Assembly: GCA_963826115.1 (NCBI GenBank)
Contig: CAWGVS010000005.1
Location: 384,001 to 448,000, forward strand
DNA length: 64,000 nucleotides
Reading direction: 5' to 3'
Source of the DNA: an uncultured Candidatus Rokubacteria bacterium
Lineage (GTDB): Bacteria > Methylomirabilota > Methylomirabilia > Rokubacteriales > DASRDR01
Shown here: piece by piece, positions 15,720-24,991 of the stretch
How the letters are laid out: every line of letters starts with the position of its first letter
How positions within the stretch are numbered: position 1 is the first letter of the stretch
Made by a program: the position numbers and the translations under genes
The notes under the pieces: generated by a model
Seen by the model: the letters and a program-made list of their open reading frames with translations, nothing else
What the model was told of the DNA's origin: nothing
Database searches by the model: none

Positions 15720-16606
15720 TTGGGAGCCTCGTGGGTCGCCGCAGTCCTCGCCGCGCTCGCGCTGCAGGCGAGCGGCTGCATGAATCACTACCTGATCTAC
15801 CCGGATCGCGATCCCCCGGGCATCGTGACCTGGAGCGAGGACGTCACCCGCGGGCCGCTCCTGATGCATCTCGAATGGGCGGCGCCGCCTGGCTCCGGGC
15901 CCCTTCCCGCGGTGATCGTCCATCCGCCGGCTGGCGGCGTCGCCGGAGAGATGCGGGGCGTGATCCGCGACCTCGCGCAGCACGGCTACGTGGCGATCGC
16001 GGTCGACTATCAGCGGCTGCTGGACGGACAGTTCCGGCGCACCACCTTCTCGTGGCGCGAGCCGTCGGATCCGGTCGCCGCGCTCACGCGGGTGCGCGCC
16101 GAGCCGCGGGTCGATCGAGGAGCGGATCGCCGCGCTCGGGTTCTCCCAGGGCGGGATGTTCAGCCTGCTGATGGCCGCGTACGCGCCGGACGTCAAGGCG
16201 GTGGTGGCCTACTATCCGGTCACCGACCTCCGGATGTGGTTCGACGCCGAGCGCCCGTGGGCACGCCGCATGGTGTTTCGGCGTGATCGAGCGGCACTTC
16301 CGTCGCGAGTCGGGCGCCGCGAGCGACGCGGAGTTCGAGGAGATGCTGCGGCTCGGCTCGTCGATGACGTACGTGGACTCGCTCCGGGCGCCGGTCCTGC
16401 TGGTGCACGGCGCGGACGACACCTCCGCGCCGCTGGAAGAGTCGCGGCGCCTCGAGCGTGCGCTCCGGGATCGGGGACGCGACGTCGAGCTCCTCGTCGT
16501 GCCGGGCGCGGGGCACGTGTTCAACTTCAAGGAGCGGGACGTGGCCCAGCACGCGTGGGACGCGACCCTGGATTGGCTGCGCCAGCGCCTCGCCCCGGCG
16601 CCTTGA
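15720..16606 (+). CDS. Dienelactone hydrolase-family alpha/beta hydrolase (putative lipoprotein), two +1 frameshifts (~16118, ~16278)
   Basis: Three consecutive ORF pieces join into one protein: signal plus ASGC lipobox, PAVIVH, ERIAALGFSQGG (GxSxG), PVLLVHGADD, GAGHVF. Confidence 0.8.
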
Positions 16607-16647: not shown

Positions 16648-18970
16648 CTACAGCCCCGGCCGCGACTCCGTGGGCGGCGGGTCGTAGGCCCGGATGGGCG
16701 GTACGGGACCGGTCCAGCGCTCGACCTCGACCAGGGCGTGCTGGCCGGAGCAGCCCTGGGCGAGCTTCGACGTGCCGCGGTCGAAAGTCAGGACGTTCGG
16801 GTTCCCGTGGACGCACATCGCGTCCGGGTCCGCGGGGTCGAGCGGGTCGTACCAGGCGCCGGTCGCCAGCTGGACCACGCGGGGTCGCACCGCGTCGGTG
16901 ACCACCGCGCCCGCGAGGCAGCTGCCCCGGCCGTTGAACACGCGCACGACGTCGCCGCTCCGGACCCCGCGCGGCTCCGCGTCCGACGGGTGGATGCGGA
17001 TCGGCTCGCGCCCCGCGACCTTGGACGCCTGGCTGAACGCGCCGACGTCGAGCTGGCTGTGGAGCCGCGTCGTGGGGTTGTTCGCGACCAGGTGGAGCGG
17101 GTAGCGCTCGGCGAGGGGCGCCCCGAGCCATTCCGTCGGCTCGAGCCACGACGGGTGGCCCGGGCAGTCCTTGTAGCCGAAGCCGTCGACCGTCTCGGAG
17201 AAGATCTCGATGCGCCCGCTCGGGGTGGCGAGCCGCGCGCCCTCCGGATCGTCGCGGAACGCCTTCAGGAGCACCAGGTCCCGGTCGGCGTCGGCGACCT
17301 CGAGGGACCCCGCGGCCCAGAACTCGTCGAAGCCCGGCAGCGCCGGCCCGCCGCGGTGCAGGACCTTCTCGCGCCAGCCTCCGTAGAGGTGCCGGAGCCA
17401 GCCCATCTCGTCGCGCCCCTCGGTGAAGCGCGGTGCCCGCGCCCAGCGCCGCGGCGAGGTCGCTGAAGATCGCGTACTCGCTCCGCGACTCCCGGTACGG
17501 CTCGATCGCCTTCCGCATCGCGATCAGGCAGGGGTCGTTCGGAGAGCCGCCGATGTCGTTCCGCTCGAGCGTCACGGTCGCGGGCAGCACGATGTCGGCG
17601 TGCCGCGCCATCGCCGTCCAGAACGGATCGTGCACGACGACGGTGTCCGGCGTGGCGAGGGCGCGTCGCAAGCGGGCGAGGTCCTGGTGGTGGTGAAAGG
17701 GGTTCCCGCCGCACCAGTACACGAGCCGGATCCGCGGGTAGGCCAGGCGCTTCCCGTCGAAGTCGAAGGGCTCGCCCGGCTGGAGCAGCATGTCGGCCAG
17801 GCGGGCGAACGGGATGGCGGCGCGCACCGGGTTCGGCCGCTGGGGCAGGGCGGGGGGATGGCTCCGGAGGGGCGGGCGGCCGACGTAGCCGAGCGAGCCG
17901 TAGCCGCTGCCGAATCCGCCGCCCGGGAGCCCGATCTGCCCGAGCATCGCCGCCAGCGTGACCACCATCCACGGCGCCTGCTCGCCGTGCTCAGCTCGCT
18001 GGAGGGACCAGTTCGCGTTGATGAACGTCCGGCGCGACGCCATCCGGCGCGCGAGCGTCCGGATCGTCGCCGCGGGGATCCCGGAGATCCGCTCCGCCCA
18101 CTCGGGCGTCTTGGGCGTCCCGTCGTCCGCGCCACGGAGGTAGCGCTCGAAGCGGTCGAAGCCCGCGCAGTAGCGCCCGAGGAACTCGCGGTCCGCGCGC
18201 TCCTCGGCGACGAGCGCGTGGGCGAGGCCCAGCATGAGCGCGACGTCGGTACCGGGGACGACCGGGAGCCACTCGGCGTCCAGGAACTCGGGCAGGTCGT
18301 CCCGCATCGGGCTCACCAGGACGAACTCGGCCCCGCGGGCCCGCATGGCGCGCAGGTGGTCCCGGAGAGGGTGGCGGCTCGCGCCCCCGGGGCTCACCAT
18401 CGTGTTCTTGAGCGGGATGCCCCCGAAGCAGACGAAGAGCTCGGTGTGGCGCTCGATCACGGACCACGCAGTGGCGCGGTCCAGGTAGCTCCGCATGTCG
18501 CCCAGCACGTGGGGCATGATCACGGTCAGGGCGCCGTTACTGTACGTGTGCTCCCCGCGCACGAAGCCGCCGAGACAGTTGAGGAAGCGGTGGAGCTGGC
18601 TCTGCGCGTGGTGGAAGCGCCCCGCGCTGGCCCATCCGTAGGAGCCTCCGTACACCGCCTCGCCGCCGTGGGCGTCGTAGACGCGCCGGAGCTCTCGCGA
18701 CAGGAGATCGACGGCGGTCGGCCAGCTGACCGGCACGAAGGGCTCGGCGCCCCGGCGCCGGTCGGGTCCCGGGCCGCGGTCGAGCCAGCCGGCGCGGACC
18801 ATCGGCTGCGCGATGCGCGCGCGGTGACGGAGGCTCCCGGTGATGTTGCCGAGGAGCGGCGACGGGTCCGTGTCCTCGCGGTGGGGGTGGACCGCGACGA
18901 CGGCGCCGTCCTCGACCTCCGCCTCGAAGGCGCCCCAGTGGGACGCGTGGAGCTGCCGCTCGGTCGTCAT
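16648..18970 (-). CDS. Cytoplasmic bis-MGD molybdoenzyme, biotin/methionine sulfoxide reductase (BisC/TorZ-like); one +1 frameshift ~17435
   Basis: SHWGAF, SYGWASAGRFHHAQSQ, YS (Mo-ligand Ser), W..QRAEHGEQ, GGNPFHHHQD, ADIVLPAT..LERND; C-terminal RLHSQL, HGNPNVLT.D.GTS.LAQG. No Tat signal. Confidence 0.9.
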
Positions 18971-19132
18971 GTCGCGCTCTCCCGGGGCGAGAATGGCACG
19001 GCGGAGCGCGCCGGGACAAGCGTCGCGGCCCGTCCCCCTTGCGACGCGCGCCCGCCTTCGTCTATGTTCCGCTGGCCGGGGCAGTCGGGGCCCGGCGGGG
19101 ATACTCTCACTGATCCGGAGGGACGGCGACGC

Positions 19133-20156
19133 ATGAGCGACGGACGTCGGGTGATCGCGAACATCGGCATACTCTTGAATGGCGCGGCGGCCGAGCGCGA
19201 GCGGCTGGCCGCGGCGGGCGCGCGGGTCGTCGAGGCCCGCGGCGGCAGCGAGGACGAGCTTCGTCGCCTCGTGCGGCGACGCCGAGGTCGTCCTCGGTCT
19301 CGGCCAGTTCCCGTTCACTGACCGGGTGTTCGAGAGCCTGCCGCGCCTCCAGTTCCTCATGCAGTGCACGGTGGGCTACGACCGGGTGGACGTCGACGCC
19401 GCGACGCGCCACGGGGTGATGGTGTGCAACAGCCCGCGGTTCTGCATCGAGGAGGTCTCCGACCACGCGGCGATGCTCCTCCTGGCCTGCACCCGCAAGC
19501 TGCCCCAGCAGGTCGACGCGTACCGGCGTCACGGCTGGAGCCGTCCGCCCGCGGTCGAGGCGATGGGCCCCGTGTACCGCATGCGGGGGCAGACCCTTGG
19601 CTTTGTCGCCTTCGGGAAGATCGCGCGCCTGACCGCGGAGAAGCTGTCCGGCTTCGGGATGCGCTACCTCGCGTACGACCCCTATCTCACGCCCGAGGCC
19701 GTGCGCCGGTGGAACGTCGAGCTGGTCCCCCTCGACGAGCTGTGCCGGCGCTCCGACTTCATCTCGATGCACGCGCTCCTGAACGGCGAGACCCGAGCCC
19801 TCTTCGGGGCGGCCCAGTTCGCGGCGATGAAGCCCACGGCCTACTTCGTGAACACCTCGCGTGGCGGGACGGTCGACGAGGCGGCGATGATCCAGACGCT
19901 CCGGGAGGGCCGGATCGCCGGCGCGGCGCTCGACGTCCTCGTCCAGGAGCCGCCCCATCCGGACAACCCGCTCCTGACGCTCCCCAACGTGCTGCTGACG
20001 TCGCACACCGCCGGACACGGCGAGGGCTCCATGGCGGACAACCGGCAGCAGTCGGTCGACCAGGTCCTGCGCTTCCTCGGCGGCCGGTGGCCGACGGCGC
20101 TCGTGAACCCCGAGGTCAAGGTGCGCGCCCGCGCGGGCGCTCTCCGGGAGTCCTGA
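19133..20156 (+). CDS. D-2-hydroxyacid dehydrogenase (CtBP/SerA-like); one +1 frameshift ~19260
   Basis: N-terminus MSDGRRVIANIG...GSEDE joins VASCGDAEVV...; VGYDRVDV, EEVSDHA, FVNTSRG, LDV..QEP, TSHTA. Confidence 0.85.
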
Positions 20157-22031: not shown

Positions 22032-22708
22032 GCTCGATCTACCGGCGCGCGCTCGGCGCCGACTTCGATCGGCTGCACCCCCAGATCCAGCGGCGGTTCG
22101 GCTTCGGGAGCGCCGACGGCGTCGCCTCGATCGGCACGGGACGGATGGAGGAGGTGTGGCGCGGCCCGGCCTACACGCTGCCGTTCCTCGCCGTCGGCGC
22201 GTGGCGCCACATCATGTTCCCGGCGACCGGGCGGGACGTGCCGTTCCGGATCGAGAACTACGCCTACGTCGACGGGCTCGGTCGCGAGACCGTGACCTGG
22301 GTGCGGACCTTCGAGCTCCCGGGCCGGACCCGCCGCTTCGACGCCACGATGATCTACGCCGAGCGACGCGGCTGCATCGTGGACTACCTCGGCACCCACC
22401 AGCACCTCGCGGTGGACATTCACCTGTCCGTCGACGAGCGGGGAGGTCTCCGCCTCCGGTCGGGCGAGCAGCGGTTCTACGAGGGCCCGGTCGCGTTCCG
22501 CTTCCCGCTGCTGTTCTCCGGCGTGGCGGACGTGCGCGAATGGTTCGACGACGCCGCGGGACGGTTCCGGATCGAGGTGACCGTGACGAACCGGACGTGG
22601 GGACGCCTCTTCGGCTACCGGGGCTGGTTCACCGCCGCGTGGCCCGCGTGCCCGCCGGCCGCGGTGCCACCGCACGTCCGCCCGCTCCGCGAGGAGCCCC
22701 GTGAGTGA
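22028..22708 (+). CDS. DUF4166 domain protein (YndH-like)
   Basis: SIY.RALG.DF.RLHP.IQRRF, ETVTW.RTF, RRFDA.M, DYLG, LFGY.G.F; GTGA overlap. Confidence 0.8.
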   Translation: MSSIYRRALGADFDRLHPQIQRRFGFGSADGVASIGTGRMEEVWRGPAYTLPFLAVGAWRHIMFPATGRDVPFRIENYAYVDGLGRETVTWVRTFELPGRTRRFDATMIYAERRGCIVDYLGTHQHLAVDIHLSVDERGGLRLRSGEQRFYEGPVAFRFPLLFSGVADVREWFDDAAGRFRIEVTVTNRTWGRLFGYRGWFTAAWPACPPAAVPPHVRPLREEPRE

Positions 22709-23147
22709 GGGGCGCCCGGCCACCGGCGACGGGCCGATCATCCTTTACGACGGTGTCTGCGGGCTGTGCAACCGGCTCAACCGGTTCGTGCTGGCCCGCG
22801 ACCGGGCGGGCCGCTTCCGCTTCGCTCCGCTGCAGGGTCGCCTCGCCGGGGAGATCCTGACGCGCCACGGCCGGGATTCCCGCGACCTCGACACCCTCTA
22901 CCTGGTCCTGGATCCGGGCCGCCCGGGGGAGCGCCTGCTCCGGAAGTCGGATGCCGCGCTCTGGATCCTCCGCGAGCTCGGCGGGCCCTGGCGGATGGCC
23001 GGCGCCCTCCGTGTCGTGCCGCCGGCGCTCCGTGACCTCGGCTACGACATGGTCGCGCGGACCCGCTACCGCCTCTTCGGGCGATACGACAGCTGCCCCT
23101 TGCCGGCCCCGGAGCATCGCGACCGTTTCGTCGACCTCGGCGCCTGA
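22701..23147 (+). CDS. DCC1-like thiol-disulfide oxidoreductase family protein
   Basis: ILYDGVCGLCN (DxxCxxC), RFAPLQ, SDAAL, RD..Y..VAR.RYRLFG. Confidence 0.88.
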   Translation: MSEGRPATGDGPIILYDGVCGLCNRLNRFVLARDRAGRFRFAPLQGRLAGEILTRHGRDSRDLDTLYLVLDPGRPGERLLRKSDAALWILRELGGPWRMAGALRVVPPALRDLGYDMVARTRYRLFGRYDSCPLPAPEHRDRFVDLGA

Positions 23148-23154
23148 CCTCCGG

Positions 23155-23696
23155 TCAGCGCTCGACGGCGGCGAGGAGGTCCCCGACGGGGAGGGCGTCG
23201 CCGAACGACTCGCTCGGGCGCGCGTAGCGGTCGACGTCTCCCGGGCCGAGAACGAAGCTCCCGCCGAGCTGGAACGGGTGCTGCCCCGTCCGCCCCTGGC
23301 GGTATCCTCCCGCCCGTGCCCGCTTCTTGGCGAGCCAGTTGGCATGGCGGAAGAGGTGGCCGAGCGAGGCGGACCGCAGCTCCACCGCGCGGTACGCGGT
23401 GCGTTGCGCGTCGACCAGCAGGGGAAAGGCGATCCCCGACTCGTCGCGGAACGCGCGGGCGTAGCCGAGCGTCCCCCATGCCGATCGCGGCGAGCCGCGC
23501 CCCGCGCGACCCGGAATTCCCCCTCGTGGTCGCGCAACTGCGCGACGTGCTCCCGGCAGAACACTCAGCCGTAGTGGCGGAGGAAGACGAGGACCGCCGG
23601 AGCGTCGGTCCACAGGCTGCCGAGGCGGACCGGCCGCGCGTCGGCGTCGGGCAGGACGATCGGCGCGAGCCGGGCCGCGATCGACGCCGTCGCCAT
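23155..23696 (-). CDS. Peroxiredoxin-like (AhpC/TSA_2, PRXL2/SelU-like) putative selenoprotein with UxxC motif; two +1 frameshifts (~23511, ~23475)
   Basis: MATASIAARL...PAVLVFLRHYG-TGA(23565-23567)-VFCREHVAQLR...AAIGMG...FPLLVD..R.AY...QLGGSFVL. The TGA sits where homologues have the first Cys of CxxC. The ATG overlaps the upstream stop (TGATG). Confidence 0.82.
23529..23546 (-). other. Putative bacterial SECIS hairpin
   Basis: Minus strand GTCGCGC-AGTT-GCGCGAC, a perfect 7-bp stem starting 19 nt after the UGA, with GU in the apical loop. Confidence 0.7.
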
Positions 23697-24136
23697 CAGG
23701 CGAGGCGCCGGTGCTCGACCATCAGGCACCGGTCCTGGACCACGCGGATGCCGGCGCGCGCCCAGGTTTCTGCCGCCTCCTGGTGCGCGATCCCCAGCTG
23801 GAGCCAGACGGCGCGAGGCTTCACCGCCAGGATGTCCTCCACGTGGGGCGGAATGTCGCGCGGGCGCCGGAAGACGTTGACCATGTCGATCGCGCCGGGC
23901 ACGGCCCGGAGCGATCGGTAAACCGGGCGCCCCAGAATCTCGACGACCTCCGGGTAGTAGACCGGCACGGGCACGACGTCGTAGCCGTGCCGCAGCATGT
24001 AGTCGGGCACGTAGAAGGCGGGCGCTCCAGCGCGCGACTCCGGCTTGATTCCGAGGACCGCGATCCGGCGGCACTCCCGGACGAGCGCCGCCATCTCCTG
24101 GGAGTCCGTCACGAGGTTCGCCCGCCAGGAATTCAT
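23696..24136 (-). CDS. CoA-binding protein (YccU-like)
   Basis: IAVLG, GY.V.PV, ILG...Y.SL, IDMVNVFR, VWLQLGI, VVQDRC..VEH. Confidence 0.9.
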   Translation of the reverse strand: MNSWRANLVTDSQEMAALVRECRRIAVLGIKPESRAGAPAFYVPDYMLRHGYDVVPVPVYYPEVVEILGRPVYRSLRAVPGAIDMVNVFRRPRDIPPHVEDILAVKPRAVWLQLGIAHQEAAETWARAGIRVVQDRCLMVEHRRLA

Positions 24137-24298: not shown

Positions 24299-24991
24299 CT
24301 AGCTCGACCTCTTCCAGCGGCGGCGCCCCACCGCTCCGAGGCCGACGAGACCGGAGCCGAGGAGCAGGAGCGAGGCAGGCTCGGGCGTCGGCGCCACCTG
24401 CAGGTGGTCGACCTCGAAGAAGATCGGCCCGCTGTTGGTGACACGAACCGAGCTAATGCCCGCCGGATCGTACACCCCGAGGAAGCCTTCCACGGCGTGG
24501 TCGAAGCCCCCCGGTGTGGCATCGATCGCGGACGAGGTTTGGCTGTTCGCGGTCATGGTGAAGCTGTTGGTGAAACCAGCGGCGTCGTCGTACACCCAGA
24601 GGCCAAAGCCGAGGACCGGCTGCGAGAACGTGAACTCGATCTGGCTATCGGGTCCCGCGCCTCCGGAGCGGTTCAACAGAGCGGCGTCGAAGACCGTGCC
24701 CAGGACGCCTCCGTCGTAGCTTCCCCTGAAGATCTCGGCGCCGGAGACCGGGATGTTGGGCAACGAGAAGGTGATGTCCAGGCCGCCCAAGGTGATCTTC
24801 GGGATGTCGCCGTTGGCATAGGCGTCCAGGCTGTCCTCGAAGAAGGTTCCGACCGTGCCCTGCCAGCCCGTGTCGTTGGCCGGGTTGGAGCCCGAGACCG
24901 CGAAGAAGATCGGAACCGCGCCAACCGGCCCTGCTGCCATCACGGTGCTCGCAAGCGTCAGCCCGAGCACGGTTCTGCCCCAAGGCGTCAT
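24299..24991 (-). CDS. PEP-CTERM sorting domain-containing secreted protein
   Basis: Signal peptide, G/S/T/D/F-rich beta body, C-terminal TPEPASLLLLGSGLVGLG..RRRWKR; GAGAGGA RBS. Confidence 0.92.
   Translation of the reverse strand: MTPWGRTVLGLTLASTVMAAGPVGAVPIFFAVSGSNPANDTGWQGTVGTFFEDSLDAYANGDIPKITLGGLDITFSLPNIPVSGAEIFRGSYDGGVLGTVFDAALLNRSGGAGPDSQIEFTFSQPVLGFGLWVYDDAAGFTNSFTMTANSQTSSAIDATPGGFDHAVEGFLGVYDPAGISSVRVTNSGPIFFEVDHLQVAPTPEPASLLLLGSGLVGLGAVGRRRWKRSS

Follow-up and report, generated by a model that had tools for sequence, protein, structure and literature searches.

We report a selenoprotein gene, split in its annotation by an in-frame TGA, on the minus strand of a 64,000-nucleotide window from the genome of an uncultured Candidatus Rokubacteria bacterium (contig C5:384001-448000 of G000, an assembly of 6.24 Mb in 12 contigs with 71.9% G+C). 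Comparison with its relatives indicates that this is almost certainly a genuine selenoprotein gene; the incorporation of selenium, the binding of SelB, the substrate and the reductant are predictions. We also consider likely the fuller statement, in which the UGA is decoded as selenocysteine (Sec), a hairpin just downstream acts as a selenocysteine insertion sequence (SECIS) element, the product is an oxidoreductase related to PRXL2, and two frame breaks further along the gene are assembly errors.

Starting from the ATG at 23696-23694, the minus-strand frame reads MATASIAARLAPIVLPDADARPVRLGSLWTDAPAVLVFLRHYG, the TGA (23567-23565) and then VFCREHVAQLRDHEGEF. The residues ...VFLRHYG stand before the TGA and VFCREHVAQLRDHE directly after it, and most orthologues share the start M-A-x-L-A-x-R-L. 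The original prediction, made from the letters of the window, had noted that the open reading frame (ORF) is divided at this codon and had proposed that Sec is inserted there; the position of the TGA and the split are as described, and the interpretation is supported by the comparisons that follow.

A search with the C-terminal piece of the gene yielded a match in 19 of 41 genomes, G000 included, and in 16 of the 20 that belong to the same family (f1). When the 19 loci were read upstream in frame, the column after RH(Y/F/L)G was TGA in 18 and TGC in one. All 16 family-f1 orthologues retain the TGA within RHYG-TGA-xFCR, with open and conserved frames on both sides, and read through EFRARGAxxAAxGLGDxxYARAF without a frame break. 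Across 99 distinct copies from several phyla the codon is TGA in 94, TGC in four and TGT in one, a ratio that is not unbiased, as the copies were drawn from loci that include the best 80 of 257 from a pattern search. The gene thus has the hallmarks of a selenoprotein gene at this position: an in-frame UGA aligned with the Cys of homologues, and coding sequence that is conserved on either side. Cys or Sec at the TGA column is what the original prediction had expected of such an alignment, and the outcome that would have told against it, the absence of TGA and hairpin alike from close relatives, was not encountered.

A profile built from 18 intact sequences (A1) matched 106 of the 251 genomes of the phylum at E <= 1e-10; G244 and G038 are counted in this tally but support none of the claims made here. 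At E <= 1.4e-44, 49 matches were found outside G000, of which 40 contain exactly one TGA and nine contain none. All nine belong to genus g16 of the same order, in which 9 of the 19 genomes with a match have no TGA. By record name, the relatives are Candidatus Rokubacteria or Methylomirabilota, and the group is found in soil-type metagenome-assembled genomes (MAGs). Close homologues also occur in MAGs labelled Acidobacteriota, "delta proteobacterium"/Binatus, Dormiibacterota, Verrucomicrobiia, Xenobia and Actinomycetota; such labels, from single MAGs and short contigs, may reflect binning errors. Within g16, Sec and Cys forms alternate among species (loci L063-L074).

The genome encodes the components needed to decode UGA as Sec, as had been predicted. 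A tRNA-Sec (76.9 bits; called SeC with anticodon tca by ARAGORN), selA (576.5 bits), selB (347.8 bits) and selD (393.2 bits) were all found above their curated cut-offs, and the first three are grouped on contig C8. The selD gene, which lies outside the window at C5:561687-562604, contains one in-frame TGA of its own (...SHGAG-U-ACKLG...) with an 8-bp hairpin 15 nt later; given this codon and hairpin, SelD is counted as a further predicted selenoprotein of G000. Hairpins at a similar spacing are present in other selenoprotein genes of this genome.

A second AhpC/TSA-like gene, also outside the window (C6:759062-759370), carries an in-frame TGA in ...SADW-U-PFCK... and, some 17 nt past it, a hairpin with palindromic arms, CGCAGCUC-GUC-GAGCUGCG. 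From its sequence, this gene is probably another UxxC selenoprotein.

Downstream of the UGA in the window gene, we located a perfect 7-bp hairpin comprising the stem strands GTCGCGC (23546-23540) and GCGCGAC (23535-23529) and the loop AGTT (23539-23536). The spacer is 18 nt, so that the first stem base is the 19th nucleotide past the UGA, exactly as the original prediction had it. A stem-loop 3' of the UGA with a G in its apical loop is what the bSECISearch model of bacterial SECIS elements, reportedly described by Zhang and Gladyshev in 2005, calls for. The hairpin alone is weak evidence, since a perfect 7-bp hairpin follows 46 of the 1025 TGA triplets of the window (4.5%); it gains its weight from the comparison with relatives. 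Of 84 distinct Sec-type sequences, 82 share the AGTT loop and 81 have five or more contiguous pairs adjoining it. The codons inside the hairpin are frozen (Ala GCG in 82/82, Gln CAG in 82/82, Leu TTG in 83/84 and Arg CGC in 79/82), while the flanking codons vary freely, with a synonymous entropy of 0.6-1.0 bit. Conservation at synonymous sites is what a Sec reading had predicted. The TTG Leu codon had been singled out as uncommon and as completing the pairing. Its rarity is real (in 1,997 long ORFs of G000, TTG accounts for 1.7% of the Leu codons), but only its third base pairs, and CTG would pair just as well. The two T's are loop bases, and TTG therefore fixes the sequence of the loop and not the stem. 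In E. coli, SelB contacts the G-U dinucleotide of the loop.

Related sequences add to this picture. RNAalifold recovered a 5-bp core, CGCGC/GCGCG, and paralogue L045 (CTGTCGC-AGTT-GCGGCAG) has an AGTT loop too, on a 7-bp stem in which three pairs have undergone double changes. The g16/g22 sister clade has a different hairpin, (G)CCAGC-AGGTC-GCTGG(C), which starts 10-11 nt past the codon. It is intact in 9/9 Sec forms versus 1/5 Cys forms, having decayed in four of the five Cys forms examined, and the rare Ala codon GCT is distributed in the same way (9/9 Sec forms versus 1/5 Cys forms; Fisher p = 0.005, kinship ignored). Retention in Sec forms and loss in Cys forms would be the pattern expected of a structure that takes part in decoding UGA. 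The presence of both forms in one genus (g16) provides a natural experiment on how a SECIS element decays after Sec has been replaced.

Several properties of the hairpin weigh against its being a SECIS element. Its fold is no more stable than that of shuffled sequences (z = -1.23; 21 of 200 shuffles fold as well). A search against Rfam at a permissive threshold matched no family, giving one chance-level match (E = 9.9) to an unrelated long non-coding RNA model. Covariation is almost nil in the 84-sequence alignment, because the stem hardly varies, and the double changes come mainly from paralogue L045. Furthermore, the hairpin overlaps the conserved peptide VAQLR, so that its conservation is in part a constraint on the protein.

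Like the fdhF-type SECIS of E. coli, the window hairpin is placed within coding sequence shortly past the UGA on its 3' side; its apical loop is about 25 nt from the codon and has a G followed by a U. It differs in having a perfect 7-bp stem without a bulged U and a loop of four nucleotides (AGUU), and its binding of SelB is putative.

Profile searches and a structural model indicate that the product is a thioredoxin-fold oxidoreductase of the AhpC-TSA_2/PRXL2-like group, with the Sec of U-x-x-C predicted to lie at the N terminus of the first long helix. In NCBIfam, two stretches of the product, 59 residues at the N terminus and 105 at the C terminus, match only NF040769 ("SelL-related redox protein"; 53.8 and 38.3 bits); the cut-off of this model, 120 bits, is meant for the whole protein, and the window gene was scored in two pieces since it is split. 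Intact orthologues L028 and L082 score 124.3 and 123 bits, a paralogue in a related genome reaches 192.2 bits, and the sister clade, at 113.2 and 111.5 bits, falls just under the cut-off. NF040769 resembles the window gene in length (~173 positions) and in the position of the redox motif. With the orthologue group right at the cut-off and the sister clade just below it, however, the gene belongs to a peripheral subgroup and not to the core of the model. The phrase "SelL-related" was not found in the literature searched; SelL is a UxxU selenoprotein.

The Pfam family PF13911 (AhpC-TSA_2) is matched by the C-terminal piece at 38.6 bits, above its gathering threshold of 27, and is also carried by the database relatives. 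By contrast, the N-terminal piece scores 18.5 bits against PF00578 (AhpC-TSA), under the threshold of 26. A canonical peroxiredoxin was considered and rejected, both on this score and on the motif: the peroxidatic Cys of canonical peroxiredoxins stands in the context PxxxTxxC, and RHYG-U-xx-C has no Thr three residues ahead of the Sec.

The A1 profile also matched human prostamide/prostaglandin F synthase (PRXL2B, 9us9) from end to end (E = 8e-18, profile positions 10-169), with LRRFGCVVCR of 9us9 aligned to LRHYG-U-xFCR, so that the human CxxC lies opposite U-x-x-C. In an AlphaFold2 model of an intact orthologue (predicted local distance difference test score 94.7), the Sec position comes immediately ahead of helix 37-48, and the top Foldseek match is 9usa (TM 0.84/0.88, 23% identity), followed by Bcp, ResA and AhpE. 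PRXL2B, this best structural match, and the product of the window gene share a thioredoxin fold in which the motif starts the first long helix. Full-length homology, fold and motif position all agree with membership in the PRXL2/SelU type, and the earlier assignment to PRXL2/AhpC-TSA_2 is thus upheld by Pfam, NCBIfam, the profile match and Foldseek alike. The human enzyme differs in that it uses Cys, is eukaryotic, has only ~23% identity and acts on prostaglandin H2; orthology with PRXL2B and a common substrate in soil bacteria are unlikely. The selenoprotein SelU of fish and birds is a member of the PRXL2 family, and eukaryotic Sec forms use a SECIS in the 3' untranslated region.

From these features we propose a mechanism. 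The UGA at 23567-23565 would be decoded as Sec, with the hairpin 18 nt downstream acting as a bacterial SECIS that, by analogy with the E. coli system, would recruit SelB-GTP-Sec-tRNA(Sec) to the ribosome. As suggested by the fold family, the selenolate would probably attack a substrate in oxidised form, either a disulfide or a compound of the peroxide or endoperoxide type, and then form a selenenylsulfide with the Cys three residues on, which a thioredoxin-type reductant would reduce. The organism most likely makes the full protein, both insertions presumably being errors of the consensus.

Beyond the TGA, the frame is lost twice after EF in this assembly. P0081, an intact 135-aa protein from another assembly that is 94% identical to the G000 allele, maps by tblastn in three pieces (23564-23496, 23509-23468 and 23475-23158) and three frames. 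Between EF and GD, G000 has 43 nt versus 42 in orthologues, and it has 7 nt for the two codons ahead of YARAF. Both +1 insertions are missing from every relative, and the G000 allele shares 94, 90, 86 and 81% identity with intact 135-aa proteins of other assemblies. The two insertions had been anticipated as extra G's, probably errors. The breaks and their probable origin stand, but the identity of the bases does not: leaving out the T at 23509 and a single base within 23470-23464 (after GAC) brings back the family's EFRARGARL and GMGD, and the extra bases are probably not G's of the G-runs.

On the sequence comparisons, it is quite likely that the two insertions are errors of the assembly consensus. 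The alternative that survives best holds that the family truly is a selenoprotein family and that the G000 copy is a recent pseudogene, with real insertions that put it out of frame after about residue 62; we consider it unlikely. Consensus errors are the likelier of the two because nearby conserved genes carry similar insertions found in G000 only. Our tblastn survey of frameshifts covered 123,098 nt of G000, with 244 ORFs from four relatives as queries. A reverse control, with G000 ORFs against the relatives, gave six frame switches in ~158 kb, some of which mirror events of the forward survey. In view of this control and of wrong-frame alignment in G+C-rich DNA, a break was counted as specific to G000 only where three to four relatives contradicted it, and four of the six strict survey sites proved unpolarised or a relative's own.

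Three genes within 12 kb of the selenoprotein gene are also broken in G000. A short-chain dehydrogenase (SDR) gene (PF00106/PF13561; 11299-12151, plus strand) is split at ~11908 by a +1 insertion unique to G000; in three relatives it occupies a single frame, and the fourth likewise supports one gene. A molybdopterin oxidoreductase gene (16651-19375, minus strand), a single ORF of 809-942 aa in four relatives, has a +1 insertion at ~17430, between its Molybdopterin (PF00384) and Molydop_binding (PF01568) domains. As at ~11908, the break is a net insertion of one base that is unique to G000. Finally, the gene at 15774-16597 (plus strand) lies in three successive frames when compared with the single relative that covers it, G002, and shares its two-break pattern with the selenoprotein gene; near 16122 there is one extra base relative to G002, and near 16279 the alignment is untidy. 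With three neighbouring genes broken, a locally poor consensus fits better than four separate gene deaths. Users of the assembly should be aware that, from 11.9 kb to 23.5 kb of the window, several conserved genes are interrupted by single-base insertions.

The state of the gene itself also argues against decay. The start, TGA, hairpin, UxxC, all invariant A1 columns and the stop are intact in G000, as is the 94%-identical allele of the other assembly, and dN/dS (the ratio of nonsynonymous to synonymous substitution rates) lies well under 1. One short-read contig, ~98% alike, continues without window base 23469 at the second site, although this is weak support (depth 2.5, 12 letters).

Other observations weigh on the side of a pseudogene. 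Two independent breaks within ~40 nt of one gene of 540 bp far exceed a uniform error rate, and the survey found just two other breaks specific to G000 (three to four relatives each) in ~123 kb, a distribution that would also fit the onset of decay. The breaks lie outside long homopolymers, the usual place of long-read errors, and dN/dS is slightly higher in comparisons of G000 with genus members (0.20-0.36) than among the others (median 0.18). Contigs of four soil sequencing runs span 23153-23468 and 23663 onward, and none of them reaches the TGA or the first break; exact-pattern scans of metagenome contigs over the two frame breaks gave no matches for either. Given the reverse control, moreover, the survey alone cannot set polarity.

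Far less probable is that the TGA is an ordinary stop, either of a nonsense pseudogene or of a 43-aa peptide followed by a 135-aa protein that starts at GTG. Public gene calls give just such proteins of 135 or 126 aa, and a GTG does follow the TGA directly in G000. In most orthologues, however, the next codon is ATC or CTG/CTC, which are not usual starts, and the 35 codons examined ahead of the TGA are conserved and correspond in the model to three strands (E6-9, E14-16 and E26-30). The TGA column holds the catalytic Cys in the few copies that lack TGA, the hairpin is retained in Sec forms and not in Cys forms, and the Sec machinery is present, all of which speak for Sec at this codon. Recoding of TGA to a standard amino acid (Trp or Gly, codes 4 or 25) has a negligible chance of being correct: two database translations of relatives do show W or G at the Sec column, but that column aligns with Cys, TGA is the stop of the selenoprotein gene, of its upstream neighbour and of 12 of the 16 family-f1 orthologues, and tRNA-Sec with anticodon tca, selA, selB and selD are all at hand. 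A four-letter decoding step was also considered and rejected, as each candidate word occurs in frame upstream too and would shift the frame there.

The two translations in question are the full-length public proteins P0006 (RHYGWIFCRE) and P0050 (RHYGGIFCRE), to whose contigs the gene callers evidently applied a code in which TGA is sense. Elsewhere, public gene calls shorten these genes to 135 or 126 aa. Under the Sec reading, the annotation of the window should give one protein in place of a pair of fragments, and the same correction would apply to hundreds of 126- and 135-aa entries named "hypothetical" or "AhpC/TSA", as well as to translations with W or G at the active site.

Catalogues of bacterial selenoproteins have included UxxC peroxiredoxin-like (Prx-like) families since 2004-2008 (PMC2398784 and PMC1794560). 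Such families are also listed in a review of 2026 (PMC13188914), which in addition refers to a Methylomirabilota MAG for which 63 selenoproteins are predicted. The Prx-like thiol:disulfide oxidoreductase and the Prx-like 1-3 families described there resemble the window gene: the proteins are small and have a thioredoxin fold, Sec comes first in UxxC, homologues with Cys exist, and the SECIS lies within the gene. Compared by label, the catalogued families carry PF00578, PF08534 or cd02970 (UxxS), whereas the window gene carries PF13911 and NF040769, neither of which is named in the passages of the catalogues and the review on Prx-like selenoproteins. The Gladyshev and Zhang catalogues draw mainly on marine and deltaproteobacterial data, in contrast to the soil-type MAGs of this group. 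The window gene is one more addition to the known UxxC Prx-like selenoproteins. It brings a well-supported member with a simple and highly conserved SECIS to a phylum that PMC13188914 reports as rich in selenoproteins.

A broader proposal is more tentative, and we hold it to be somewhat unlikely: that the gene represents a large family of soil-bacterial selenoproteins, truncated or mistranslated in almost all public annotation, which would be the bacterial counterpart of SelU/PRXL2 with Sec at the homologous position, and in which coding sequence and SECIS would form one co-constrained unit. The peptide V-A-Q-L-R, spelled GUC-GCG-CAG-UUG-CGC, is nearly identical letter by letter in records labelled as seven phylum-level groups. 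If the proposal holds, either a ready-made module of Sec and SECIS has spread horizontally and repeatedly, or the use of Sec in the family is very old.

Table 1. Coordinates of the selenoprotein gene, its elements and adjacent genes in the window.
Feature	Position	Strand	Evidence or remark
Selenoprotein gene, ~178 aa, SelL-related/AhpC-TSA_2 (PRXL2-like) thioredoxin fold (predicted)	23155..23696	minus	Assembly reads three frames; P0081 collinear; orthologues intact
ATG start	23694..23696	minus	One-base overlap with the TGA stop of the upstream CoA-binding gene (23698-23696)
UGA, predicted Sec codon, position 1 of the U-V-F-C redox motif	23565..23567	minus	TGA-conserved column; Cys in 5 copies and in human PRXL2B
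TGC, putative partner (resolving) Cys of UxxC	23556..23558	minus	Invariant column C39 in A1; TGC in 84/84 Sec-type sequences
Putative SECIS hairpin GUCGCGC/loop AGUU/GCGCGAC, inside codons V-A-Q-L-R-D	23529..23546	minus	Structure and conservation
TTG Leu codon; its two U's are the last two loop bases, its G the stem-closing base	23535..23537	minus	TTG in 83/84 sequences
First +1 frame break, one extra base	23496..23509	minus	tblastn pieces 1 and 2 of P0081 overlap here; orthologue sequences
Second +1 frame break, one extra base after GAC of GMGD	23468..23475	minus	P0081 mapping; one short-read contig
Stop TGA of the gene, taken as ordinary	23155..23157	minus	
CoA_binding_2 (YccU-like) gene, upstream, translationally coupled	23696..24136	minus	PF13380, 120.9 bits
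DCC1-like thiol-disulfide oxidoreductase gene, convergent, downstream	22701..23147	plus	PF04134, 97.6 bits

The coupling to a YccU-like CoA-binding gene, part of the original prediction, was recovered in the overlap of the ATG with that gene's stop and in the PF13380 match (Table 1). Among the 107 loci that we compared, a CoA-binding gene stands immediately upstream in 24, all of them Rokubacteria/Methylomirabilota-type records or members of family f1, and a DCC1-like gene lies within 2 kb in 23 loci of the same lineages. The largest cluster of neighbours (47 loci) is an antisense ORF of the selenoprotein gene itself, and outside Rokubacteria-type loci the commonest real neighbour is a luciferase-like monooxygenase, in 11 loci only. 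None of the gene partners in this set shows conservation outside the Rokubacteria-type loci, and function therefore cannot be inferred from the neighbours.

In one relative (L029/L046, G012:C18), no stop separates the CoA-binding ORF from the selenoprotein ORF that follows it, and the two share one frame (...VEHRRLASRVMAGLAARL...); this joined ORF is either a fusion or the result of an assembly indel. Further upstream in the window, a 230-aa ORF at 24299-24991 (minus strand) ends in ...PEPASLLLLGSGLVGLGAVGRRRWKRSS, which by eye resembles a PEP-CTERM sorting signal.

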